From Eledone cirrhosa (Eukaryota): a stretch of DNA of 64,000 nt. How positions within the stretch are numbered: the stretch's first letter is position 1; each line of letters opens with the position of its first letter. The DNA lies in contig OZ024743.1 of assembly GCA_964016885.1 (NCBI GenBank), positions 42,718,001 through 42,782,000 on the forward strand, in the 5' to 3' direction. The translations under genes and the position numbers were made by a program. Under the pieces are notes generated by a model. It was not told the DNA's origin. It was given only the letters and a program-made list of their open reading frames with translations, and did not search any database. Positions 349 through 62,946 of the stretch are shown here, piece after piece.

Positions 349-1521
349 AGAAAGTGATGTTATTTTACAAAATGAAAAATAACTGAGGTGTCCTACACGA
401 GTGAAAGTATAAAGAAATAAAGATGAAATCGAAAATGCAACTGGAGTCTTATTTTAAAAAAATATATATATTTATTTGGTTCCTTTAGCGGTTTCTCAGT
501 TCTTCTGCTTTTCAAAAGTAGAGTTGAGATGGAGGATCTGTGGTTTTTCTCACATCTGATGTGAGAAAAACCACAGAAAAACCACTGACGAACGATTCCA
601 ACCGTGACCATCCCCACTGAAAAGTTTCGTGAAATAGTCTTTTTAAGACTATATAGAGCATTTGTAGTTTTTCCAAATTGAAGGATGAGTATTTAAGCTT
701 TATTTTATTCTGAGTTAAGACTCTATTGGTTTTCCCTGGATTTCACAAAATCTGTGGATAAAATATGTCTTGATTTTTTTAAAATTGAGTTTGAATTATT
801 TTCCCATATCTTACGTTAATTATTTTCCATTTTGACCTTATAGTCACTTATATATTATGAAATACTCACAATAATTTCTATATTTTCATTTATATTTATA
901 CTCGGAATGTTTCCTAGAATGCTTAAAATTATTTGTGACTAATCCCGGTCTTTTTTTTTTAAGAACCGCAATAATATTGCTATTTTGCCGAACTCCTTAC
1001 ATTTTGTAGAGTTTTTTCGGAATGTTTTTGAGTGCTGTTTCTTGTAAATAGAAATTAGTCTCATTCTGACCTCACCAGCCATGTCTCTCCATGTGTGTTT
1101 ATTTTTATAATTCCGCACGAGGTGAACTGGCCTGCTTTTAAATTCCCTTTTTGGCATATTTTGGCAGTGCTTTAGGGTTATCGTGTTTCAGCTCTACTGA
1201 CGAACGACCCCAACAGTGACCACCCCCACTGAAAAGTTTCGTGAAATAGTCTTTTTAAGACTATATAGAGCATTTGTAGTTTTTCAAAATTGAAGGATGA
1301 GTATTTAAGCTTTATTTTATTCTGAGTTAAGACTCTATTGGTTTTTCCCTGGATTTCACAAAATCTGTGGATAAAATCTCTGTCTTGATTTTTTAAAATT
1401 CAGTTTGAATTATTTTCTCATATCTTACGTTAATTATTTTCCATTTTGACGTTATAGTCACTTATATATTATATATTATGAAATATGTTGGCTTCTTGCT
1501 CACAATAATTTCTATGTTTTC

Positions 1522-7085: not shown

Positions 7086-8274
7086 CGAAGAAAATGTGGT
7101 AAGCAACCAGATGGACTATAACGCACCAAAGTACTCAATACTCGGGTGGGCGAGAAAAGTACGCCGACAAAGAAAAAGAACTGGGGTAGAAGGACTGGGG
7201 AGGGATGGGGAGAAGAAGGAAATATAGAGGAAGCGATAAAAGAAAAAGAAAATCTTACGTCTCCCTTGGCAAGCAGGGGTTACCCATTACAAAATCGGCA
7301 AGTGGGGTCTTATAACCCTAGTCTAACCCCCCGGGTCATTATGGAGTTTGAGGGCGAGGTAGGTCCTACGCAATCTATGTTTACATGCAGTAACCAGTTC
7401 ATCTTTCTTATTTAGGAGTTGGTCCGTCGAAAACAGCATTTGTAAAGTTTCCTCCGAGCATAAATTGCACTTACCTCGCCCTCAAACCCCATAATGACCC
7501 GGGGGGGGGGGGGGGGGTAGACTAGGGCTATAACACTCCACTTGCCGATTTTGTAATGGGTAACCCCTGCTTGCCAAGGGAGACGTAAGATCTTCTTTTT
7601 CTTTTATCGCTTCCTCTATATTTCCTTCTTCTCCCCATCCCTCCCCAGTTCTTTTCTTTGTCGGCGTATTTTTCTCGCCCACCCGAGGCAGCTCTTTGGC
7701 CGCTTGCAGCCTCAGTACCCCCACCCCCTCCCCTAGTCTATGATAGATTTGGCGGACTCAGCTTTTTATAGCAGTTGTGTTAGACCTCGGATACTTGCCC
7801 CCTTATCCGACCGCTCCCCCTTTTTTCCGTGCCTTCTATATTTCTTAGTGGCACCTCTGCCTTAATTTCTCGTTTCAGTATTTCTTTCTTCTCTTTTCTT
7901 TTGGGCAGAGTGGATTCTGAATTTATTTTTCCGTATTCTACTTCTACCTCGTACGAACTTTTATGCAGCTTGTATAAGAACTTTTGTAGCGTGGCGGTAC
8001 CATTAGAGTTAGCATTAGTATATTTTTTTCGGGACTCAGAATTATTATCTCGTACTAGTTAACTTTTCTGCACTGGATGGTTGCTGGCCTTGTGCCCGTG
8101 GTAGAAACCTTTATTAATTATTTCGTCGTAGTTTCTTTAGTATTTTGGCCCCCATTGTTGACCCGTCACCGTATGATATACGTACTTATACCTCTTAAAA
8201 GGGTCCTTTCCTATTCCGTCCCACCTAGTTTATTTACTTATTTTTTTATTTCTTTATTTCTTTATTTCTTTATT

Positions 8275-10334: not shown

Positions 10335-10686
10335 ATATAACACATGCCAAAGTACTGCCAACCACAACAACGAAATCCACAGTAAAAAAATGAGATAGAC
10401 CCAACTGTGGCATTTGCATCAACCTAATAGAGGGTTCGGAATTCTATTTCAAAGAAGGATAACGTTTTATAGTAAAACACAATTTCACATGCGCATCAGA
10501 AAATCTAATATATCTATTAACTTGCTCAGACTGTCGAGAACAATACATAGGCCAGACCAAAAACAGGCTCCGCCAACGTATGACTGTCCATAGATTCCAA
10601 ATTAAAATACGTGAATACACGAAAATACCACTGAGTGAACACAGTGATACCTGTGCCGCCCAAAATCACCCCATATGGTCCACCCC

Positions 10687-10915
<229 letters not shown>

Positions 10916-16316: not shown

Positions 16317-16365
<49 letters not shown>

Positions 16366-16409
16366 AAGTTAAATAAAAGTCAAATGATTAAAATTTAGCT
16401 TCGTTTATT

Positions 16410-16464
16410 ACTGCTATATATATTTCAGTGACAGCCATCTTTGGCTGTGACCTCTTCAGGCAGT
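16410..16464 (-). ncRNA. Canonical type I hammerhead motif (family E)
   Basis: ACTGC CTGAAGA GGTCACAGCCAAAGATGGCTGTCACT GAAA T ATAT ATA GCAGT. Confidence 0.88.
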
Positions 16465-16826
16465 TTGAATTAGTATGGTATAGACAAGTACATATGTTGT
16501 TTAGGTGTATGATATTGTCAATACTCTGATATGCCCAGTTCCTTGTTGGGTTGTTAATTCACTGGGGAACTGGAGTCATATGACTCTTCAGGCAGTTTGA
16601 ATTAGTATGGTATAGACAAGTACATATGTTGTTTAGGTGTATGATATTGTCAATACTCTGATATGCCCAGTTCCTTGTTGGGTTGTTAATTCACTGGGGA
16701 ACAGGAGTCATATGACTCCAGTTCCCCAGTGAATTAACAACCCAACAAGGAACTGGGTATATCAGAGTTTTGACAATATCATACACCTAAACAACATATG
16801 TACTTGTCTATACCATACTAATTCAA

Positions 16827-16881
16827 ACTGCCTGAAGAGGTCAAAGCCAAAGATGGCTGTCACTGAAATATATATAGCAGT
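16827..16881 (+). ncRNA. Canonical type I hammerhead motif (family E)
   Basis: Same motif on the opposite arm. Confidence 0.85.
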
Positions 16882-17022
16882 AATAAATGAAGCTAAATTT
16901 TAATCATTTGACTTTTATTTAACTTTATTTTACACTACTCCGGAGTAACCAAACCAACCTGCGCACTTCGTCGAGTGCTCCAGCGTGCATACTGAGGTGT
17001 TGGTATACAACCAACATAAACT

Positions 17023-17560: not shown

Positions 17561-17608
<48 letters not shown>

Positions 17609-17613
<5 letters not shown>

Positions 17614-18032
17614 AGATCAAAAGATGGTTAAAGGAGTTCCATGTATTTTATTATGCGCATTTCAAAAACAAACATCATCATGCAATAATATTTGTGTTTT
17701 CATCAGATAAAACAGGAGAACATGATATGAAGGCTAAAAAACACTTGTGGATAGTGCAGTTTTAAATCAACATATCAACATATGTTGATTTAAAACTGCA
17801 CTATCCACAAGTGTTTTTTAGCCTTCATATCATGTACTCCTGTTCTATCTGATGAAAACACAAATATTATTGCATGATGATGTTTGTTTTTGAAATGCGC
17901 ATAATAAAATACATGGAACTCATTTAACCATCTTTTGATCTTATATTATATATACTCCAGTCCTACAAACTGTAGAGTGCTTCTTATCCGATATCTGCAT
18001 TGCTTTATTGTACTACAATAAAACTCACCTCC

Positions 18033-19636: not shown

Positions 19637-20012
19637 CTGTTTCTCACCTTCTCACTTCCTTCCGTTCGCTACTAGTGGGGTTCCTTCTTTCTCACACCGC
19701 ACTCACGGCGTACTGCCTGCTTCTCTGACCGCTCATGAAATTCACCCACCTTATGCTGATCGGATAACTACCATGTGGCTTGCTGTTTTCCAACCTTCGG
19801 TTTGCTTTTCCTTCTCTTGTTTACTTGTCTCACTCGCTTTACTCGTTTCACTTGTCCCAATAGCTTATTTTAGTTATTGCTCGCACCAACCTGAGGTATC
19901 TGATTTTTAATGCGATGAAATACCAATGATGGTTGGCAAAATCACTGATGAGGGACTAATTTTATAATATGTAATCTATGTGCAACCATGCAGTATTCTT
20001 CTTCCCCTTGTT

Positions 20013-20017
<5 letters not shown>
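19630..20017 (+). mobile_element. (TA)n-embedded element, family K (no hammerhead found; K-turn-like motif)
   Basis: 3' part homologous to 55850-56030 and 62850-62946. Confidence 0.65.
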
Positions 20018-21076: not shown

Positions 21077-22867
21077 CTAGTCCCTCAGGATTTTCGACAT
21101 GTAGATTACTGCGTATCTCTCCCGCCTTCGTTCCAAGGAGTAGACGTTAAGTTCTTTTAGCCTCTCCCAGTAGCTTATCTCCTTCATCGTGGCAATCCTC
21201 TTGGTGTAGCTTCCCTGGATTGCCTCGAGCTTCGTGGTTTGTTTGACACTATGGGGTGACCACAACTGGGAGCAATAGTCCAGGCGGCTTAGGACAAATG
21301 TCCTCCATAGTTTCAACATGGTGTCGCGGTCTCTTGTCTGGTAAGTCCTCAAGATCCAGCCAGCGAGTCGTCTGCACATTGTAGCCACTTTCATGATGTG
21401 TAAGGAACAAGATGCATCATCGCTCATGTCTATACCCAGGTCTCGTATCGATTTTGACACAGGGATATCGGTCCCCTCTGGTCCTGCGTAACTATGTTGT
21501 ACTGTATTTGTGTTTGCAGGTTTGTATTGTAGGGCTTGCAATTTGCCAGCATTGAACAGCATGTTGTTTTCTTCCGCCCATTTGTATATGGCATCCAGAT
21601 CTTGTTGTAAAAGGGCAGCGTCAGCCGGGTTTTTGATTGCCTGTGCTACCTTAGTGTCATCAGCATAGCTAGTGAGGGATGTTGTTGTATGTACTACAGA
21701 GGCCATGACTGAGAGAGCCACCAAAAACAGTAGTGGTCCCAGGACTGTTCCTTGGGGTACCCCACTTGTTATTGGTGTTTCCTTTGAGAAGGCCCCGTTT
21801 TCTGCAACTGTCTGGCTTCTGTCCTTTAAGAAGTCATATAGCCACTCACCTACTTTTCCAGTTATGCCGAGTCCGTGTAGTTTGTGATATATCATTCCGT
21901 GGTCGACCTTATCAAAGGCCTTTGCAAAGTCAAGATATATCACGTCCACGTGTGAGCTGTCTAGCAGTTGTTTCAGAACCCAGTCATAGTGATGTAGCAG
22001 CTGTCTAAGGCAGCTTCTTCTTGGGCGGAAGCCATGCTGCGCGCTAGTCAGGCAGTCATTTTCCTCGAGGAAAGTGATCAGTTTCTTTCTGACGACTCGC
22101 TCCATGACCTTACTGATATGCGACGTCAGGGAGACTGGCCTATAGTTTTTGGCCTCTGCTCTGCTACCTGTTTTATGGATAGAGCATATAGTGCCTTCTT
22201 TCAGCTCCCTAGGAAGTATACCGCTAGCCAAGGAGCTTCTGAAGAGCATCTTCAGTGGAGTTGCTAAGGCCCGCTTACATGTTTTTAAGAGGGCTGCTGG
22301 GAATCCATCAGGTCCAGCAGCTGAGTCTGTTCTAATTTCATCTATGGCGTATACCACATCCTCCGTTATGTCTATGATGGTCGCCATTTCTTCATGTAGT
22401 GTTGTGGCATCAAAGAACTCCTCTGACTTTGTTATTTGCATGTGCCTCAGTGGACATGTGAACACACTTTTGTACTGTTCGTTCAGTATTTTACATATCT
22501 CTTGGGGATTCTCCGTTAATGAACCGTCTGTATGGAAGAGTGGTCCAATATTGCAGTGTACCGAGGCAGTTTCTTTTGGAAATTTAAAGAAGGCCTTAGG
22601 GTTTGTTTTAATGTTTTCTGTGGCCCTGCTTTCTTTCTTTGCCCTCTCATTTTCATGGGAAATTTTGAGTGCAATCTCGGTGCCAAGTAGTGCACGTTTC
22701 AAATAGGATTCCTTCTTGTTTTTGTTTTCTTGTTGTGCATTCAAGTGGTTTGAGAGCTTGGTTCTACGTCTCATAAGGATTTTGCTATCTTTGGGAATAA
22801 GATTTTTGTGTCTGTTTGCCTTTTTCTCCGGGACAAACATTTTGCATATAGTGTATATCGTTGTCAT
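21077..22867 (-). pseudogene. LINE ORF2 reverse transcriptase portion
   Basis: Motifs AAGPDG, NYRPVSLTS, QHGFRP, YLDFAKAFDKVDH, GVPQGTVLGPLLF, YADD, SLERRRERY; frameshifted continuation to ~20800. Confidence 0.95.
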
Positions 22868-22869
22868 AA

Positions 22870-23790
22870 AGTGTTGAAATTGTGTGTTGGTGTCTTGTGT
22901 GGTGGTCTTTTCGCTCCGTGTTTGCTTCCAGATTTCTCTCTTGATCTTTTTTTAGTTAGTCTTGTAGAAGATAAGGCTGGATAACGTCCTGGTGCTTCTT
23001 GATGGTTTTGTCTCTGTTGGTTCTCTCGGACCACATATCATTAGTTCTACTAAGTTATGATCCGAGAAAATTGTTGGTGTCACCTTTACATTGTGGACGA
23101 GCATTTCATTGTTTGTAAAACAGAGGTCCAGCACAATTTCGCCTCTTGTTGGAAGGAGTATTGCTTTTTATGTGAACATATTGCCTGTGTGTGAGGGCCA
23201 GCAGGGATTCCGTCTCTCTATGTTCTATTGACGTCATTCCAGGGAGGAGGTGGCCCTCAGGCCATTTGACCTTTGGCAGGTTGAAGTCTCCCAGCAGTAG
23301 AATGTTGAGTCCCTGGTCCAGTTTGTCAAAGACCTCTTCTATCCTACTGAGGCTTCCTCAAATTTACCCTCATGACTGGGGGCATCGTGCGGCCGATATA
23401 TGACACATATTACTGTCTGTAGTTGCTTCATATGCACTATCAGTGTGTCACAGACTGAGTTTGAATGTGTCAATAGTACAATTGGTGTGACATCACGGAT
23501 ATACAGAGCAACCCCACATGAGTTCTCTCCTTCCTGTCCGAACGAAATACAGTATATTTCGGTATATGTATTTCTGCATCTGATATACTGCTTGTCAGGT
23601 GCGTTTCGGTTAGTGCCATGCATAATGCTTGATTGCTTATGGCTAAGTCTCCCAGGTAGGACATTTTACTCATGTTACTGAGTTTCATCAGGCCTCTGAC
23701 ATTCAGCAGCAGCACTGGTGTGGCTTTTGGGGTGCCAGTAATGGCTGTCGGTATGACACCTGGTCTGGTGTCAGCGGCGGTCACTCTCAA
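22870..23790 (-). pseudogene. LINE ORF2 APE endonuclease, split by frameshifts
   Basis: LLLNVRGL, ALTETHL, GVALYIR, VIYRP, LLGDFNLP, LDLCFTN and SDHNLV spread across frames. Confidence 0.92.
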
Positions 23791-27568: not shown

Positions 27569-28171
27569 TTACATTTTATATATATATTTAAAAGTAGAGT
27601 TTAAACGATGTTTGCAGGAACTGAATACATTATTTCGCAAATTAATAGAGTTCTTACTTTTTAGTATAAAGAATATTTCTTCAGCACAATGGGAGCAATT
27701 TTGGGATAAAGCTGTGTATGAAGGAGCTTGGGAAATAATTTTCCAAAATAAAGAATAGTTAATGTACTTGGATTTCAAGTCCCATAATAAGTTAGATAGA
27801 GAAGCTGAAGATTTTTTACCAATATTCGTAAAGGAAAATTTATGGTTATTAAAACGAGATTTGAAGTCTGTGGAAGTAGAGCCGACATAGTTAAAGGATT
27901 TTTCATTTGTTTTGACATTACAATTGTATACTATATTTTTAACTAAACAATTATTATTTAGAGGACAATTATATTTATTTCTACAATTACATTTATCTAA
28001 ATTTATATTATTGGGAGCCGTAACATTATATTGGATATTGCTAGGGGTATTAATGCTATTCTGGTTAGGTTTTAAGTTTCTATTATTAATTCTATTAATA
28101 TTCTGCGCTAAATTCATAGTGGTGGAATATGAAAGTTTAATAGTATGTCTATTAAAGATTGAATAATACAT
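27569..28171 (-). pseudogene. PLE GIY-YIG endonuclease
   Basis: IVY...YVG...R...H motif order with flanking Cys clusters. Confidence 0.9.
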
Positions 28172-28240
28172 GTGTGTCCTACCTAGGAAAGCACCTATTT
28201 AGAGCTTTAAAGAATAATTTAGCAATAGGAGTTTTAATAC

Positions 28241-28795
28241 TTAATGAGAAAGGGGGAGCGAACCATAATATATTTTTCTTTTGGTTTTCGAGTTAGTGTA
28301 AGGTTTTCTACTATAATTATATTTATAGTTATGGTTAGTTGGCACATTCTTATTATCAATGTATTTAATTTTATTACTATAGCCTGCTCTACCTAACGCT
28401 TCGTTATAATATTCTGCCTTATCTTCAAATATATTTTTATTAGCTGAAATTCTAGAAATACGTTGCTGCACAGAATTTACAATAGGGTTTTTAACGCATC
28501 TGGGGTGATTGGAATTAAAGTTAACATAGTTTAAATTCTCGTTTATTTTATGAAATGGATAATAAAGACCATTGTTAAGGTTTAAAGTTACATCTAAAAA
28601 ATTAACTATTTTATAATTATTCTCTACTTCTACTTTAAGATTAACGCTATTAAAAAGTTGTATAATTTCTTTTCTTTTCCTATTTATTTCACAATTATTA
28701 TTATTTTCAATAAATAATAGCATATCGTTACGATATAAACCACCGCTCATCCCCGGTATTTTCCTATGTAAAGTATTGTTAATAAAAAGCCCCAC
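28241..28795 (-). pseudogene. PLE reverse transcriptase C-terminal/thumb remnant
   Basis: LYRND (degenerate YRDD), FLDV, SNHP. Confidence 0.88.
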
Positions 28796-28970
28796 AGGAT
28801 CCGTTAATTGCGCCGAGTCCGATGAACCTATAGTGATATCGAAAATGTTATCTCTGTCTGCTCTAGTCCAAAGGTGGTTGCTAAATTTAATTAATGTTTT
28901 AAATTAATTTAATTAATGTTTTTAAAAAATATTTAAGCTTGTCGAATCCCAACTAATTAAATATAACATC

Positions 28971-29219: not shown

Positions 29220-29248
29220 TTTACGTCCGCTTTTCCCTGCCTGCACAT

Positions 29249-29401
<153 letters not shown>

Positions 29402-29404
29402 ATA

Positions 29405-29889
29405 TATGAAATCGTGTGTCGAAACAGATATTGTTATACTTGGGGAGGGTCATATTTGCGTAATATTGCCAGAATTAATAACTGAACACACTCACTGTTT
29501 GGTTGGTTTTCGCTTCTCGCTGTCTTTTATATCTGCGATCTAACTTACTCGGTCCTCAATGTTGCCATTGACTGACGTAGACATACAACATACAGTGGCG
29601 TAGACATACAACACAACAGGAGGAACAATGAATATAACACCACTGACGATGTTGCAGATGTGCAACGAAAGATTTATGTAAATTATGTAAACTATATATA
29701 TGTGTTTGTGTCTATATTGTATCTGTATTATTTTTGACCGCCGGTCAGTCAATGGCAACATTGAGGACCGAGTAAGTTAGATCGCAGATATAAAAGACAG
29801 CGAGAAGCGAAAACCAACCAAACAGTGAGTGTGTTCTGTTATTAATTCTGGCAATATTACGCAAATATGACCCTCCCCAAGTATAACAA

Positions 29890-29890
<1 letters not shown>
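29405..29890. mobile_element. Fold-back element, family D
   Basis: Inverted arms 29430-29575 and 29745-29890; CTGACGA TGTTGCAGATGTGCAAC GAAA core at 29643-29670. Confidence 0.8.
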
Positions 29891-29921
<31 letters not shown>

Positions 29922-29997
29922 AGTATGCATGAGTGTATCTATATAAATATATATATATATATATAGCATACAATATCGATAAACATTTATAGATACA

Positions 29998-30478
<481 letters not shown>

Positions 30479-49150: not shown

Positions 49151-50818
49151 TTAATAACAAAAAACAAATCCCCCATTCCCATTATGCCAAACCCATGACT
49201 TCCAAATATCTGATCCACCGAATTCGACGAACACGCGACTCTTTACAACCAGGCCCTCAAGCGGAGTGGCTTCCGGGAGGAAATATCCTTTTATCCAGCT
49301 TCCCTTAGCGGAACTAGCAGGCGGACACCGCCGCTCACGCAACGTAACGTGGTTCAATCCTCTCCACAATGCCGAGGTGGCAACACCTATCGGGAAAATG
49401 TTCTTTAGACTCCTCGAAAAACACTTCCCACTACAACCCGCTACCCACAACATAATCAACAAAAACCATCAAACTCTCCTACCGTACCACACCTAACTTC
49501 GCACAAAACATCGTCTCCTCAAACAACAAAAAACTCAACCCCTATGGAAGAAATAACCTGGATATCAGTGGAGAGCCGACCAGGAGGTGTAACTGCCCTG
49601 ATAGATCCATGTGCCCCCTCAACAACAAATGCCGAGAACGTAAACGTGATCTACCAGGGACGTGAGGACGGACACCTCCAACAAAGCTTATATAGGATTA
49701 ACCCGCGTGTGAGTTCAAGACCCGGCTCTACCACACGACACACTTTCCGAAACACGGTTCGGCGACATGCCACTACACTTTCGGGCCACATCTGGGACCT
49801 CCAAGATAACAATATAACCTACAATCTCACTTGGAGCTTACTGTCCAGAGCTAACTCTTACACGGGAGGACGCCGTCCGTGTAACTTATGCTCGGAGGAA
49901 GCATTATAAATGCTGTTTTCGAAGGACCAACTCCTAAATAAGAAAGATGAACTGGCAACCGCATGCAAACACAGATTGCGTAGGACTGACCCCCGCCCTC
50001 AAACCCTATAACGACCCAGGTGATTAGACAAGGGCTGATACCCCCACCCCACACACACACACTTGCCAAATAAGTTAAGGAAACCCCAGCTTACATAGGT
50101 AAATGTATCTCTTTTCTTTTCCTCTGTGTCTCCTTCTTCCTCCTGTCTCATCCTATCACTTCCTTCCATCCCCTATTTTCTTCCTCATCTGCTTTCCCCT
50201 TTCGCCTACCCCGATGCAGCCCATCGGGCCTTGTAGCATCAGTTGCCCCACCTCTGTTATTTTAAGATAGAATTGGCCGAATACGTTTTACTAACTACTT
50301 ATTGCATATGCGTTAAAAAACCCTTTAAGTTTGTATCTGTTTTGTAATTTCTATAAGTTTTTTCTATAGTCAACTTATTACCTGTAATTGTAAAATAGCA
50401 TTGTGATTTCTTTATTAAATTTCTCACTATCTAATTTTATATATATATATATATTTTTTTATTTCTTTCTAGTATCTTTTATTGTCTCCTACTCTCTTTC
50501 GATTTACCTATTCTATAACCTACCTCACCCACTTCATACACTATCCTTAGAATCTGATGTATACATATCACTTTCAACGCTTGACCGCTCCACTCACTCC
50601 TCTATTGTTCTACAGGCAAGTTCAGCCACCCCTACTTCCTACCAAATGCCATGATAAACTTATTTGTGTTTACAACAAATTTTAACCAATCCTCTTGACA
50701 ACTACAAATCCTTCCCATATAAGGAAGTAACCCCCTTGAAAAGTTCGGCTATTTATTCACCAGGCTAAAAATTCTAATTTAGTCGAGAAATTGCCCTCTA
50801 AACGGCTTGATATCTGCC
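49150..50818 (+). mobile_element. Degenerate PLE 3' half (CxCx5C linker, GIY-YIG), parent type of family C
   Basis: NVTWFNP, CNCPDRSMCPLNNKC, TTLSGHIWDL, CNLCSEE; 3' end matches family C with TTGAAAA core at 50736. Confidence 0.85.
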
Positions 50819-52654: not shown

Positions 52655-55122
52655 ATTATTCAATGCATAGAGGATGTACATTTAAAACCGCCTTTCTTCT
52701 TTTTATATACATATAATTGACATGACTTTTATGAAGATTACATTTGTCACTGCCATCTACATGCTGCAGGATAGTTTAAATAAACACATCATTAATATAG
52801 CAATTGGAAACAGTGAATTATTCGTTCATGAATCTTCATAAAATCATTCAGAAATTCAATGCTTCAGGAAATAATTTTTCTCTATGCATAGTGTTAACGT
52901 ATTGTACTTCATCACAACGGATTACAAACCTTATTTTTCTCATTCATTGCAACTTCCTGCACGATTTTTATTGTGAGGCATTTGGCAGCAAATTCTTTTG
53001 TTTGTTTAAGAGACATAACATTTGAGTGGATTACTCTAGCAAAATATGTCAACTCCGATAAACTCTCCTTTTCATGGAGATAATAATATCCTTTATTAGT
53101 TATTTAAAATTAGAATGAAAATTATATCCTTTTGTTACGATTTCAATGAAAGAGGATTGGAAATGAATACTTTAGCTGACATGGAGAAATCTTCACGATT
53201 TAATGAATCAAAATGTGATATGAATCTATGGTTGAGCACGGATGTGTTTCTAATGTAAAGTTTTCTTTAAATCCGATCAGGTTCCAAAGCAATTAGTCTA
53301 TACCAAATTTTTATAATGAAACAAACGAATAGATGAAAAAAACATATTAAAATATATAATAATGAAGAATGCATTAGTTAATATGTTTCTTTAGAACTGT
53401 GTTTGATTTTCATCAAAGTATAGGCAGATTAAATGCTGCGTATGAATATAAATTTACTGACTTAGTTTAGGGCAATCGGCGTTAAATTATTCTTACATAT
53501 CACTTCCAAACATAAATTGGCGTCCTTCGAATTCTGACGACAAAAGGTAACAATTTTTTAACAACAAAAAACATTTGCTTGAGTCCTTGTTGAGTAGGTG
53601 GTTGAATGCCCCACAGAAACGTATATCATTAACCAGGACATAATTAAAGGTACTAGGTATTCTGGACTAGAGAATATGTGATAACGATTTGCAAGAATAT
53701 TGATGAAAATGAAATTATAGCATTTTAAATTTTGACAAAAATGCTGGCTCATTATAATATTTAAGTACATATTTAAATAATATTATAAACTGGACAGGTA
53801 CCTAATCAACTAAGAGGCATTGAGCATCCATCTACTTAGCCTATAAGCAAATTCTATACTCCATTTAACGCAATTCTCCCATTTTCAGAGATTTCTTAGT
53901 CATAATTATAGGAAAAATTTGCAGATTTGTCGTCGGTAAATAGTAAGTAAAAAACCATTACAAAACCTAAATTGGTTTAGTACATTCTTCTTCACAGCAT
54001 ACCTTTGGTTATTAACCTGAATAAAATAGAGGTAGAGATAATAACTATTTATTAAAATCGTGAAAAAATGTATCATGGGAAACGTTACGTTGCGACTGTG
54101 TCACATGTCAATCAAAATATAAGGTGGTTAAATATGAATTTACTGATGTATTTTTGTGTCAATTCGCATCTGTTAACTACTATATAGGTAATAGCGATGG
54201 ATTATTAGAATCGTAAGAGTGTCACGCATAATTCCTTGTAAAATATATACTAGCATTTTGCCATTTATTTTTCCAGTGTAGATAAAATACCAATCTTTTA
54301 CTCTTGCCAATGTAATTATCGATTCCTCTCCGCATAATTTGTGACACAATATCTATATTGGAACATATAAAATGTGTATAAATTATCATTCCACGCAAAT
54401 GATGATGGGATATACACAATCTAATATCTATCATTCTCAAAGATGTGTTACATGTTCACTGTTTCAATTCTACCACTACCATAGAGGCTGCAGCATCACA
54501 GAGCTCGAACGTGACATATCACACCTAACCAGTACTACTCACCGTAATGATGGTGCTCAACTTCACATTATGTTGAACCAATCTACCACCGTAGGTTGTT
54601 TGTATATTGTTAAAGTTCTCTGTGAACTCCTGAGTGACTGGGCTTTTATTTTGTGTCTCTCCTTTGTTCTATCCTACACCATCTTGTTTTTGTGTTGTGT
54701 GCTTTGACAATATATAAACAACTACGCAGTTATCAAACCAGCCAAAGAACCGGAATTATATAGTGAATTGAAGTGAAAACCAACTGGTGAGCGTGTTTTA
54801 TTGGCAGCATGACCATCCAAAAGTACAACAATATCTATTTAAAAATAGGCAAGCAATCTTGCAAAATATATTCAAAAACGAAGAAATATATATTTATATA
54901 TTTCTTTGTTTTTGAAAACGAGACATCCGTCTGGGAAGAGATATATTTGATATATCTCATATGAAATGATACAGCCAATTTTCCACACAATACAATTAGT
55001 TAGCACCCCGAACGTTTAATTGGGAATATACTCAGGTATTTCCTAATGTTTGTTGAGAGAGTTGGAATTTGGCCGGAGTATCGCTATTAGCTTTCTCCGA
55101 TTATGTATTTATATATATATAT

Positions 55123-56030
55123 ATGAATACAAATTAGAAAGAGAAGCCAGGACTATCCATCATCAGTGATATACTAGCCATCATAGGTATTTCTTCGCAT
55201 TAAAGATCAGATACCTCTGGCTAGCGCGAACAATAATTAAAATAAGTTATTGGGATAAAAAGAGTTGGCTCTTTCTCCACCCAATTATTTTTATCCCAAT
55301 AACTTATTTTAGTTATTGTTCGCGCTAGCCTGAGGTATCTGATCTTTAATGCGAAGAAATACATTTTATGGCCAGTAGATCACTGATGATGGATAGTTCT
55401 GGCTTCATTTCTAATTTTTATTCATATGTATCACATTTGCAACAACACAACACGCCATTTTTCATTCCTATATGCTTGCCCCTTCGCTATGACCTGTCTT
55501 TTTCTCTTCCCTTACTGTTATCCTCCTTCTATCTCCCCCTTCTTTCTCCTTTTACCTCTTACTTTCATTCACAACCCTCTGCTAGTCCCCCTCTCTCGGC
55601 TAACCTCTTCCTCACACTTTCACTTACTCACTCTCTGCTACTCACCCTCTCTCTCACTTCCTCCATCGTCCCACACCGTGCGAAATTCATTTCTCGCTCA
55701 CTTTTCGTACGGCCAAGATGTGTCTTTCGTCTTCTCGTCAATGATTCGCAAGTTCTTATGTTCACATGAATCAGTGACTTGATTTTCTCATGTTTTCCTC
55801 TTTTTACGTTGCCTCACCATTCTTGTTTGTTTACCTGTCTCTCTTTCTCCACCCAATTCTTTTTATCCCAATAACTTATTTTAGTTATTGTTCGCGCTGG
55901 CCTGAGGTATCTGATCTTTAATGTGAAGAAATACCTATGATGGCTAGTAGATCATTGATGATGGATAGTCCTGGCTTCTCTTTCAAATTTTTATTCATAT
56001 GTATCACATTTGCAAAGCCATTTTTCATTC
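55123..56030. mobile_element. Family K element: inverted arm plus two direct copies of the 3' end
   Basis: 55123-55268 is inverted relative to direct repeats 55269-55470 and 55840-56030; (TA)n flanks. Confidence 0.8.
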
Positions 56031-56050
56031 CTATATATATATATATATAT

Positions 56051-57885
56051 AGTTTTGCGAGGTTTTTGATATGAAATCGTGTGTCGAAACAAATAATGTT
56101 ATACTTGGGGAGGGTGATATTTGTGTAATATTGCCAGAATTAATAACAGAACACACTCACTGTTTGGTTGGTTTTCGCTTTTCGCTTCTGTGTCTTTTAT
56201 ATCGGTTACTTTAATTTATTCGGTCCTCAATGTTGCCATTAACTGACCAACGGTAAAAAATACAGATACAATATAGACACAAACAGATACATATAGTCTA
56301 TCAAAGTTCTTTCGTTGCACATCTGCAACATGTCAGTGGTGCTATTGTTTCCTCCCGTTGCATCGTATGTCTACGCCATCTTTATTTAGTCTCTTTATAT
56401 ATTTATTTATTTGTCTATTTTTTGTCTTCTTTGCGCATGCGGTTGTGTGTGTGTATAGTGTTTTGTTTGATGTGTGTTCGTGTTTGGGTGACTGTGTATT
56501 GGTTAATATATTCTATCTTTACTAGTGTGTGTGTTATATGTGTTTGCTGTATTGTGCTTGTGTATGTATTTATTTATTTATCTATTTATTTATTTATTTA
56601 TATTTCTCTTAGGTCAGTGTTGTTTGTTTGGGTGTTGTTGTTATTCCATTCATTTTTTTGTTTAGCCTTGGCCTTCTAAGTTCTATTTCACCGGCCTCTC
56701 TGATTTGCCTATCTGCTGGGTCATTTCTCTGTTTAGATATTATTCTAATTTCTATGTTGCCTATGTTACCGTCGTGTTGTTGTCTGGCATGTTCGTATAG
56801 TACTGAACCGATTGTTCGTCCTTTTAGTTCCCCCAGTGTTGGTCTATCCTTTCACATATGCTACGAGCTGTCTCGCCTATGTATGTTGTTGTTATGTTTC
56901 TGCAAGTACCCTCTGTACATCTTATGCTATAGACTACGTTTCTAGTTTTACAGTTAATCCGGGGGTTTACTTTACATATGATAAATTTCCTATTAGTACA
57001 GTGGGTTTTCTTAAAAGGGTAGGTTTTGCTGATCAGGGATTTTATGGTGGTTCCTGGCTTTTCTACCACCTTTATTTTTAAGTGGGTCTTTCTCAGGGCC
57101 TTTCTACACTGGTTAGCTAATTTCCCTCCAGGGTTAGCGTCCACAAACATGAAACTCTGGTATCTCTGGTTGTCGTACCATGTAGTGGCTTTCCCTATCT
57201 TATCTCTAGCCCTATCTAAGCTATTCCATGATTTGCTTCTGTATAATGCGCAAATTACTTTCATGTCCAGTTCTATGAGGGTCTTATACTTCTCCGTGGC
57301 TCCTTCGTATACTCTGATTCTGTCTCTTTAGTTGTAGCCAGAGAACTGCATGCGGTTGATGAAGTGTTGGATGTGTTTTTCCATTTCTTTTGGGTCGAAC
57401 ATGCGGGGCACGTTCTTCATCACTCGTACCAAGTCTGCGATCAGAATATTAAACTTAGCACTACTGGACATTGCTGAGTTTTTGTGTATCAAGTTTTTGG
57501 AGGCCATGGGTTTAGCATAGTGTGAGTGGAGAATTTGGGCTCTCTCGTCTATAGTGTTAATCCAGAGTTCCGTGTCTAATACAGGTAGTCTATTGTTAGG
57601 GTGTTTGGAAGAGTAGTCGATAGTTACAGTTATACTCTGGTGCATGGAATTAGCTATCTGCTGGATGCTTTCCATTGTGCTACGTTCTAAATCAAACTTG
57701 TCAGTGCTCTCTTGTGGGGATGTTCTTATTACTATATTGATATCGTCTACGTAACAAGAGTACATGATGAGGTCTATGGAGCTCTCATCAATGAGATCTT
57801 TAAGTCTCCTTTCCCACCATACCATAAACGTGTGTTCTGTTATTAATTCTGGCAATATTACACAAATATGACCCTCCCCAAGTAT

Positions 57886-57890
<5 letters not shown>
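56051..57890 (-). mobile_element. 5'-truncated PLE, family D, with a 60 bp inverted end copy at the 5' junction
   Basis: RT YVDDI, LPVLD, HYAKPM (57328-57830); GIY-YIG NVVY..C....C...YIGETARS..ER...H (56824-57264); 57830-57890 inverts 56097-56155. Confidence 0.92.
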
Positions 57891-57931
<41 letters not shown>

Positions 57932-57935
<4 letters not shown>

Positions 57936-58073
57936 AAAGAGATGAAATCGAAAATGCAACTGGAGTCTTATTTTAAAAAAAATATATATATTTATTTGGT
58001 TCCTTTACCGGTTTCGCAGTTCTTCTGCTTTTCAAAAGGTGAGTTGAGATGGAGGGTCTGTGGTTTTTCTCAT
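57932..58073 (-). mobile_element. Family A single arm
   Basis: U3-A8 hammerhead motif at 58003-58038. Confidence 0.8.
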
Positions 58074-58242
58074 ATATACATTTATAATCGATAAAATAAT
58101 GTATCAATATTTAGATTGCACATATATATACCAATGGTGACTTCCATCGTCATCTATAGATAATTGTGATAAGTAGATAACAATAGGTTTATGCAAAGTG
58201 TGTTGGGAGTCAACAAGGTACGAGGTGTACAATGCCACTAAA

Positions 58243-58910
58243 TAATTGTTTCTACTTTAGGCACAAGGCCAGCAAATACCCAGTGCATTACTGGTACTTT
58301 ATTTTATCGAGCCCGTAAGGATGAAAGGCAAAGTCAACCTCGGCGGGATTTGAACTCAGATCGTAAAGGGACGTAACTATGCTGGAAAGCATGGCGTCCG
58401 ACCCTCTACCGATACTGCCAATCCACACTAAATAATGGTTTGATTTAATTCATTTTGAGTCCATTAAAGTTGGAAATATTAATGTTGAATATTTGGAGCA
58501 CATTATTTAAATAGGCGGTGGATTGGCAGTATCGATAGAGGGTCGGATGCCATGCTTTGAAGCATAGAGTTACCTCCCTGAATGATCTGAGTTCAAATCC
58601 CGCCGAGGTTAACTTTGCCTTTCATCCTTCCGGGGTCGATAGAATAAAGTACCAGTAATGCATTGGTAAATTGCTGGCCTTGTGCCAAAAGTAGAAACAA
58701 TTATTTAAATATAAAATTGGGCGGTGGATTGGCAGTATCAGTAGAGGGTTGGACGCCATGCTTTCCAGCGTAGTTACGTCCCTTTACGATCTGAGTTCAA
58801 ATCCCGCCAAGGTTGACTTTGCCTTTCATCCTTACGGGGTCGATAAAATAAAGTACCAGTAATGCACTGGGTAATTGCTGGCCTTGTGCCTAAAGTAGAA
58901 ACAATTATTT
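58243..58910. mobile_element. Cluster of three SINE copies (58243-58425 -, 58514-58705 +, 58720-58908 +)
   Basis: Full consensus in each; TSD-like CACTAAATAAT and ATTATTTAAATA. Confidence 0.92.
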
Positions 58911-59631
58911 TTCACTTCTCCATATTCATTTTCATTACTTTTTCACCAATTTTTCATTTATTCTTTATTCTTTATTCTCTATTTATTTATTTATTTTCAA
59001 ATTATACAAATTATATTAATTATTTTATTATATTATTTATTTATTTTCTTTTTTCTTCATTTATTGCCTTATATTTCATCATATACATGGAATAACCCCG
59101 CCCTCCTCACACCACCACCATGAGAGATGGTCGCAGGAGGGATGAAGAAAAAACACACACTGGATACATCTAAATTGTTAGCAGCAGCAAGATATAAGCT
59201 GACCACAACACCAACAACACTACCAAAATAATGGTAGGGGTCAAATGTACTGAACAATAGCAAACAAAAACACTACAGGGAGCCTCACCCCAGAAAGAAT
59301 TCTATAGACTGAGGAATGCTCTCAGAACTGACCAATGGCAAGTTTGATACTTTATTTGTTATTTTGTTTCTTTAACACCCTGTCCCTTTTACCATTTTAT
59401 CAATTTTTTAAGCTAACTCCAACAATAACAACACTTAGAATGAGGAATGTTCTAATAACTGACCAATGAGAGGAGAAGAGGACCTTTGACACTGAAATTC
59501 GTTTGTTTGAGTTCATATGATTCCAGTTCCTCAGTGAAATAACAACCCAACAAGGAACTGGGCATATCAGAGTATTGACAATATGATACACCTCAACAAC
59601 ATATGTACTTGTCTATACCATACTAATTCAA

Positions 59632-62251: not shown

Positions 62252-62941
62252 TGCGAAGAAATACCTGTGATGGTTGGAAGATCACTGATGAGGACCACTT
62301 TATTCATATGTAACCCAATTGAAACCACGCAGCACGTTTATTCTCATATTTACACATATTTTTCCCCACGCCGTGACCCGTCTATTTCGTTCTTACTGCT
62401 TCCTCTTTCTCTGTATCTTTACCCTCTGTAACAGTCACTCTCTCTGTTAGCCTCTTCTTCACCCTTCACTCACTCACTCTCTGTTACTACCTCTCCTCCT
62501 CCTCCTTCTTCCCGTTTCACCTGTGCATAATCCTTTTCTTTCGCACGCTTGGTCAGGCTGGTTCGCCTTTTTTTCTCTCTCTCGTCTACGATTTCACAGA
62601 ACTTATGTTCACCGAATTCACAGACTAGATTCCTTCTTCCTCCCGTTAAACCTGTACGGAATTCCTTCCTTGCTCACATTCCAACCACGTTTGATGGTCT
62701 TTATTCTCTCTCGTTCACGATTTCACCGAACTTATATTCATGGAAATTTGGGACTTGACTGGTTCTTCCTCACCTTTCGCCGCTTCACCATCTTTGTTTG
62801 TTTACACTCTCGCTGTCCCCTTTATTTATACGTGTCCCAACGACTTTTTTTAGCCGTTGCTCGCACCAACCGGAGGTATATGGTCTTTAAAGCGAAGAAA
62901 TACCTGTGATGGCTGGAAAATCACTGATGAGGACCACTTTA

Positions 62942-62946
<5 letters not shown>
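62252..62946 (+). mobile_element. Family K element with direct terminal repeat
   Basis: GCGAAGAAATACCTGTGATGG..ATCACTGATGAGGACCACTTTATTCATAT at both 62253-62309 and 62892-62948. Confidence 0.75.

Follow-up and report, generated by a model that had tools for sequence, protein, structure and literature searches.

INTRODUCTION

Hammerhead ribozymes were divided by Eckert et al. (2023) into three blocks, S, G, and C, and the non-circular block orders SGC and CSG were found to cleave (PMC10085705). RNAs of these two types came only from metatranscriptomes and soil metagenomes, and none of the non-circular RNAs, one bacterial GCS candidate excepted, was from a known organism. The ends of their interaction helix and stem III lie far apart in the crystal structure, yet are closely linked in the RNAs, and block C was assumed not to be interruptible (PMC10085705).

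According to the accessible sections of Craig et al. (2021), Naiad Penelope-like elements (PLEs) carry no canonical hammerheads; "HHR_core" and "HHR_half_core" entries were flagged, and the "half cores" were left unexplained (PMC8557442). The same sections give an inverted truncated copy beside a partial tandem as a PLE layout. For type I retrozymes, the available portion of the work on them shows circularization by a host ligase (PMC7229834).

Here, we analyzed 64,000 nucleotides of the Eledone cirrhosa genome (contig OZ024743.1, positions 42,718,001 to 42,782,000), hereafter the window, in whose numbering all positions are given. We propose, with a probability of about 0.8, that a ~105-nt module in the window, which contains all hammerhead blocks in the order S-G-C together with covarying helices, is likely self-cleaving, with a predicted cut after C19900, and forms part of a Penelope-like repeat RNA, the repeat being non-autonomous and likely derived from Naiads.

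RESULTS

All hammerhead blocks are present, in the order S-G-C

A first-pass annotation of the window had described a motif made of a stem, TGA, GGTAT...ATACC, a 3-nt bulge, GA-T, and the closing stem strand. This motif is indeed present at 19886-19936, 55897-55947, 55174-55224 (-), and 62866; of a further copy claimed at 62262, only the right half exists, the left arm being lost to a 5′ truncation that places the start near 62254. The same annotation saw no hammerhead and a CTGATGA without a GAAA partner. Both statements are wrong, because GAAA lies upstream of CUGAUGA: it occupies 19917-19920, 28 nt before CTGATGA, and the cleavage block, GAAA, and CUGAUGA follow one another as S-G-C. The GAAA sits within the loop that the annotation had bracketed, with its last A being the first A of ATACC, and the annotated inner stem is hammerhead stem III. 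Moreover, the ATCA preceding CTGATGA pairs with the TGAT just 3′ of C19900, forming stem I.

The module was delineated on the forward strand with the help of an alignment of 71 of 77 distinct motifs from loci of the same genome, 6 truncated ones having been dropped. The 5′ strand of P1 (19854..19857) closes the module by pairing with 19953-19956 (95.8% paired) and is followed by the P2 hairpin (19858..19879), which belongs to a four-way junction. Next come the displaced 5′ strand of stem II (19881..19884), which pairs with 19912-19915 (96.8% paired), and the 5′ strand of P4 (19886..19891), which pairs with 19931-19936 and represents both the stem I-II interaction helix and the NC helix of a K-turn. 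The non-bulged K-turn strand (3n, G2n, A1n; 19892..19894) keeps GA in 71/71 copies, a count partly fixed by retrieval. Block S (19895..19907) comprises the stem III 5′ strand, U16.1, H17 (C19900), and the stem I 5′ strand, and a short U/A linker connecting stems I and II (19908..19911), part of a near-invariant UUAAU/UUAAA, leads to block G (19912..19924), with the stem II 3′ strand, N11.1 (19916), GAAA, and the stem III 3′ strand. The 3-nt bulge with G1b, A2b, and 3b of the K-turn (19925..19930) and the P4 3′ strand (19931..19936) precede block C (19938..19956), which consists of the stem I 3′ strand, CUGAUGA (19945-19951), N10.1 (19952), and the P1 3′ strand. N10.1 pairs with N11.1 in 64/71 copies, including an A-U/U-A swap.

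With H17 at 19900, GAAA from 19917, and CUGAUGA from 19945, the order differs from the canonical type I, II, and III orders CGS, GSC, and SCG. Judged from its letters, the module has a complete set of hammerhead core blocks, permuted non-circularly, with CUGAnGA in 67/71, GAAA in 69/71, and A15.1-U16.1 in 71/71 copies; these core letters are partly fixed by the extraction anchors, of which GAAA is one. It shares with type SGC the block order, a short S-to-G linker, and a stem I-II interaction helix. Block C, on the other hand, is interrupted, since the stem II partner lies ~70 nt upstream instead of directly 3′ of CUGAUGA, and we therefore regard the module as a variant and not a member of type SGC. 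Because the chain opens inside the CUGAUGA block, stem II comes mostly from the displaced upstream strand: there is no contiguous stem II, only the one covarying 10.1-11.1 pair and a 4-bp helix.

Nested folding, a method that does not cover pseudoknots, recovered P1, P2, P4, and stem III as a local arm, with z-scores of -1.3 to -3.2. At the gathering score, Rfam had 0 matches in the whole window, hammerhead included, and at E<=10 the surroundings of the motif yielded only sub-threshold snoRNA and miRNA scores and no hammerhead. A generic descriptor of the module gave 4 matches in the window, all from the repeat family of the motif; the window reversed or complemented gave 0. Genome wide, a pattern joining blocks S, G, and C had 3,014 + 3,047 = 6,061 exact matches in the 3.0-Gb assembly, a lower bound for the family, while the reversed pattern had 0; chance falls far short of this count. 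Separately, the segment 41903-41950 (+) has CTGATGA with a short hairpin and GAAAC close behind it and may represent a canonical minimal PLE hammerhead.

Paired positions covary while core letters stay fixed

Covariation extends to this larger alignment of genomic copies. In the 71 copies, the 34-pair structure is paired in 95.5% of cells, compared with 24-44% in slid controls, and 15/34 pairs show two-sided changes; none of 500 shuffles matched both the pairing and the two-sided value. A measure of further pair types showed no excess over shuffles (286/500). These counts support the fold, but they are not p-values, because the copies are related and the structure was derived from them.

Two-sided changes fall on 1/4 pairs of P1, 4/7 of P2, 4/6 of P4, 3/6 of stem I, and 1/5 of stem III, so the compensatory change that had been claimed for the outer stem, our P4, is borne out. 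In P1, a G-C pair is replaced by A-U in 9 copies. Stem I is paired at 98.1% and stem III at ~98%, and the latter has other letters in Naiads. The displaced helix of stem II shows 1 two-sided change within the family and likewise has other letters in Naiads; since stems II and III barely vary within the family, their covariation rests on a by-eye cross-taxon comparison. The 10.1-11.1 pair is also two-sided, with mismatches in 7/71 copies.

Could the module be derived from a hammerhead but catalytically dead or strongly attenuated, acting as a recognition signal for PLE proteins with the K-turn as the protein-binding site? We consider this unlikely. Such a fold would accommodate the split stem II with its weak 10.1-11.1 pair (U-A, U-G), and also the finding that, between subfamilies, no other part of the unit is conserved as strongly as the module, which is located close to the fixed 3′ end. 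However, U-U at 10.1-11.1 also occurs in published PLE hammerheads (File S2 rows), and the stems drift while the core letters stay fixed. H17 in particular is A in 49, C in 35, U in 1, and G in none of 85 motifs, whose loci were retrieved by a pattern outside the ribozyme; a position that is never G in 85/85 motifs argues for a cleaving ribozyme.

A predicted K-turn lies between the interaction helix and stem III

The K-turn geometry proposed in the first-pass annotation is confirmed: a 3-nt bulge followed by tandem G-A/A-G lies between two helices, in a box D′/C′-like polarity that differs, as had been noted, from that of a SECIS. Through this K-turn, both strands of P4 are joined to stem III. 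L3 is U in 67/71, G1b is G in 68/71, and A2b is A in 71/71 copies, and thus the bulge-strand GA, said to be kept, is retained in 68/71 copies even though these positions were free in the retrieval patterns. The 3b-3n pair varies, being U-U in 31, A-A in 17, and U-G in 10 of 71 copies. Standard K-turns and box C′/D′ motifs, as far as the available text of the reports goes (PMC4382518, PMC5061560), share the 3-nt bulge, the tandem G-A/A-G, L3 = U, and the flanking helices; they differ from the present one, which is embedded in a ribozyme, has a variable 3b-3n, and lacks a guide and terminal C/D boxes.

In the accessible text of McPhee et al. (2014), 3n = G or 3b = C favors folding of K-turns in ions alone, and for U-U or A-A at 3b-3n no value is stated there (PMC4382518). 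As the 3b-3n pairs of most subfamilies are not of the ion-folding kind described there, these subfamilies might need an L7Ae-family protein. The U-U and A-A pairs could make folding of the module dependent on such a protein. We infer that the predicted K-turn supplies the bend between P4 and stem III.

Two known RNA classes were considered for the motif and rejected. For a SECIS, SECIS_1 has no match in the window and the unit no open reading frame (ORF), while SECIS_1 does match other Naiad loci. For a box C/D snoRNA, the best Rfam score is 22 bits against a cutoff of 65, and other subfamilies have an interrupted box C-like stretch.

The first-pass annotation had read the motif as an RNA module replacing the ribozyme in a PLE-like family. 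The PLE- or Naiad-like host stands; the replacement does not, the motif being a hinge within a hammerhead core that is complete. In a broader form, with a stand-alone K-turn or box C/D-like module in place of the ribozyme, or a mobile box C/D snoRNA or SECIS, this explanation is extremely improbable in our estimation. It can invoke the K-turn consensus, the weak Rfam C/D snoRNA scores, and the SECIS found in some Naiads, whereas it leaves aside that all hammerhead blocks and stems are present and that Naiad versions from corals and metagenomes retain the hammerhead but have no K-turn; nor does any Rfam family reach its cutoff in the window.

The module is carried by a PLE-like repeat with a young subfamily

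The module lies in a 5′-truncated monomer (19637..20017, +) of a ~530-nt non-autonomous Penelope-like repeat, which has (TA)n flanks and near-identical copies throughout the genome. Three subfamilies occur in the window, with non-coding units of ~530, 572, and 639 nt. Their copies start at varying points and have a fixed 3′ end, which lies at an internal TA run; they form head-to-tail tandems between (TA)n flanks and thus show the hallmarks of non-autonomous PLEs, including 5′ truncation, an inverted 5′ copy, and a microsatellite target. The unit has no ORF and so lacks the N-terminal GIY-YIG and the reverse transcriptase (RT) with DKA motif that define a Naiad PLE. Among the matches of the 19886 subfamily, the best 40 are 99-100% identical, which indicates that it is young.

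The second subfamily forms a partial tandem of ~572-nt units (55269..56036, +), adjoined by an inverted, 5′-truncated copy (55117..55268, -) that has the full motif with H17 near 55210, so that 55117-56036 has the PLE layout described by Craig et al. The tandem contains a motif with a C3-to-U change (55856-55975, +) and an additional one, absent from the earlier annotation, with a damaged K-turn (55284-55403, +). The third subfamily is represented by a partial tandem of ~639-nt units (62254..62938, +), with a full motif at 62825-62944 (+); its upstream motif is 5′-truncated at a point just past the predicted cleavage site on the 3′ side. Pairs of motifs spaced by 2.9 kb proved to be nested insertions.

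Other repeats were seen in passing. A second, older genome-wide S-G-C family (L106, L079, L080, L272-L296) differs in stem I and lacks the P2 hairpin, and a third, decayed family (L091-L093, L102, L103) shows G and then C blocks at similar spacing. Long inverted-repeat insertions, PLE-like or MITE-like, occupy 7141-7687, 16359-16932, 17601-17954, 29247-30387, and 58239-58911 of the window.

Tandems are common, at least two 3′ anchors being present in 17/78 insertions, and they raise the question of whether the blocks assemble in trans or between tandem neighbors, as a dimeric hammerhead in ordinary strand order. Dimeric hammerhead cleavage was reportedly described by Lunse in 2017. It has also been described for PLE and retrozyme hammerheads, going by those parts of the literature that were available, and covariation does not separate cis from trans pairing. 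Nonetheless, we find this arrangement very unlikely here: P1, P2, P4, and stem III form a nested arm by local folding, single-copy Naiad 3′ untranslated regions (UTRs) retain the layout, and the connectivity matches that of monomeric CSG/SGC ribozymes shown to cleave.

Insertion 5′ ends give a weak trace of possible cleavage

From 87 loci, after removal of 7 duplicates and 2 censored ones, we obtained 78 insertions with 5′ ends. Thirteen of the 78 start in the 21 nt that follow the predicted cut, compared to 1 in the 21 nt preceding it (binomial P = 0.002, in a window chosen after seeing the data). Two start exactly at the cut. With length and A/T as covariates, the excess was modest, with a rate ratio of 2.45, and the unit window 424-444 is equally enriched in 5′ ends. 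These ends are at most a weak genomic trace of cleavage; RT stalling at strong structure could produce the same excess.

At least 51/78 insertions extend upstream past the predicted cut. That most insertions span the site speaks for a catalytically inactive module; read-through, however, is also expected from a circular or multimeric template.

Searches of this genome revealed no autonomous partner with the motif

Neither pattern nor protein searches brought up an autonomous partner that carries the motif. Three patterns back-translated from Naiad motifs had 0 matches, and the protein search returned Naiad-type RT that has decayed, together with an intact Neptune-like PLE of 777 aa. Among 269 loci of the same genome, no Naiad-type RT was linked to the motif. 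The Neptune-like PLE (L243-L261, e.g., G000:C6:65686500-65694500) is young and present in many near-identical copies, and its 3′ UTR showed no CUGAnGA core; the motif was absent from that UTR in the 9 copies listed of 10. This element is a possible trans-mobilizer of the repeat.

Elsewhere in the window, remnants of C-terminal GIY-YIG Penelope-like ORFs were recognized by eye at 27569-28903 (-), 56824-57972 (-), 10463-10700 (+), and 49409-49909 (-), all four without a Pfam match. A 624-aa open frame at 21077-22951 (-) resembles a non-LTR reverse transcriptase.

Some Naiads of other taxa end in related forms

Naiad consensus ends were read by eye among search matches, with records assigned by the adjacent header, in a subset of the 54 3′ ends. 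Within this accessible subset, the Obim and Ovul ends have the same order of parts, P2 loop, and K-turn as the window module, and their paired letters differ in stems I, II, III, and P4 with pairing compensated. Three Acropora ends show the same layout with no K-turn, the Esco and Bfor ends are imperfect S-G-C forms, and the nematode ends Nbra-2, Nbra-3, and Hcon are clean C-S-G forms. Four further consensus records without an assigned name have one form or the other, and the portions viewed of the Omin, Adux, and Skow-2 ends have no such form.

A search with a Naiad RT motif gave 120 metagenomic loci, 57 with >=450 nt downstream. The generic descriptor passed 3/57 of these 3′ regions (L139, L156, and L164, all S-G-C), with controls at 0/57, 0/57, and 0/285. 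It was the second version, which allowed a bulge and required a stem II partner; a first, stricter one passed 1/64 loci and did not outperform its controls (3 and 1). In L139 and L156, the script put the stem II partner upstream, as expected; in L164 it took another strand, and the partner was placed by eye. The Naiad DKA motif is present in L139 and L115, and L139, L164, and L115 end shortly after the RT. L115 itself is C-S-G with two extra hairpins inserted after CUGAUGA, a circular permutation of the window motif, and L177 and L118 are damaged coral-type forms. Fifty-four of the 57 Naiad-type loci, many decayed and from few samples, failed the descriptor; because these loci lack the module, the feature is not universal in Naiads.

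Several other 3′ features were seen in the metagenomic Naiads. In L156:605-2365 (-), the Naiad-type RT frame continues into a ubiquitin C-terminal hydrolase (PF00443, E 2e-32), followed by the permuted hammerhead. SECIS_1 matches just after the stop codon in L136 above the cutoff and in L132, L133, L152, and L174 below it, making these candidate selenoprotein Naiads. The 3′ UTRs of L132, L133, L147, L152, L160, L168, and L174 share a structured motif that by eye presumably resembles a permuted twister ribozyme; Rfam had no match to it. Ribozyme classes may be swapped among Naiads. A conserved ~60-nt motif follows the ORF directly in L120, L127, L137, L163, L166, and L183, and also occurs in a hemichordate Naiad end; with no Rfam family, it is a candidate RNA.

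The module likely explains why Naiads were reported without hammerheads. More tentatively, and with considerable doubt, non-circular hammerheads might be the ancestral 3′ ribozyme of much of the Naiad clade (ctenophore, cnidarian, nematode, crustacean, and cephalopod), the octopus-lineage form having opened inside CUGAUGA and its K-turn making self-cleavage need the host L7Ae-family protein 15.5K/Snu13. If true, a protein-switched natural ribozyme would drive a family of circular, retrozyme-like RNAs with thousands of copies.

DISCUSSION

The strands of the module would fold into a standard hammerhead core as a multi-pseudoknot. A sharp K-turn bend would allow P4 to reach the far end of stem III and connect to it through both strands, and stem II would be a single pair, 10.1-11.1, continued across the four-way junction of P1, P2, and the displaced stem II. 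Given the U-U or A-A at 3b-3n, folding possibly depends on an L7Ae-family protein. A tandem transcript would then be cut after H17 in successive units, giving monomers of ~530-640 nt that are probably circularized, possibly by a host ligase, as in animal retrozymes. A PLE reverse transcriptase/GIY-YIG nuclease may copy this RNA into (TA)n from the internal TA run, and truncated, unit-length, and multimeric insertions would be the outcome.

The module offers a host for non-circular hammerheads, namely, Naiad PLEs and their non-autonomous derivatives, and it links the Naiad "half cores" of 2021, as the accessible part of that report presents them (PMC8557442), to the hostless non-circular hammerheads of 2023 (PMC10085705). 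It would also represent a further permutation outside the six-order scheme, and its K-turn hinge suggests a structural answer to the question of Eckert et al. of how the interaction helix adjoins stem III. Another implication is that animal genomes contain a class of ribozymes and retrozyme-like repeats overlooked by descriptor searches.

Within the openly accessible literature that we searched, the "type-SGC" hammerhead is known from Eckert et al. (2023) only. Work touching on both Naiads and ribozymes came down to Craig et al. (2021), the 2026 retrozyme preprint, which deals with type I hammerheads, and a fungal genome paper. No paper combined hammerhead, kink-turn, and permuted in a retrotransposon, none since 2022 had a permuted hammerhead in Penelope, and no such hammerhead ribozyme was reported for octopus.

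Compared with Naiad PLEs, as covered by the available sections of Craig et al. (PMC8557442), the window repeat shares (TA)n insertion, partial tandems, and an inverted 5′-truncated copy, but it has no ORF. It resembles the animal non-LTR retrozymes, to judge from those portions of the two reports that were available (Cervera & de la Peña 2020, PMC7229834; bioRxiv 10.64898/2026.07.22.740005), in being PLE-derived and made of non-coding tandem units with one hammerhead each. Their hammerheads are type I in units of 170-400 nt, whereas the one per unit here is S-G-C, hence non-circularly permuted, in units of 530-640 nt. By its sequence, the module would be a hammerhead variant working like a retrozyme ribozyme and not type SGC as defined.

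The closest relatives of the RNA itself are the type-SGC and type-CSG hammerheads (PMC10085705), whose P4 connectivity, that of the stem I-II interaction helix, it shares; with the cleaving CSG-1 and CSG-2 it has both the connectivity and the UUAAU/UUAAA linker in common. Unlike all tested hammerheads compared, it does not have the stem II 5′ strand directly after CUGAUGA. It differs from types SGC and CSG in occurring in thousands of copies in an animal genome, in a chain that opens inside block C with a four-way junction where stem II begins, and in an interaction helix whose two strands both run through a K-turn into stem III. Altogether, two features of the module are new: the chain opened inside the CUGAUGA block and the K-turn that joins the interaction helix to stem III.
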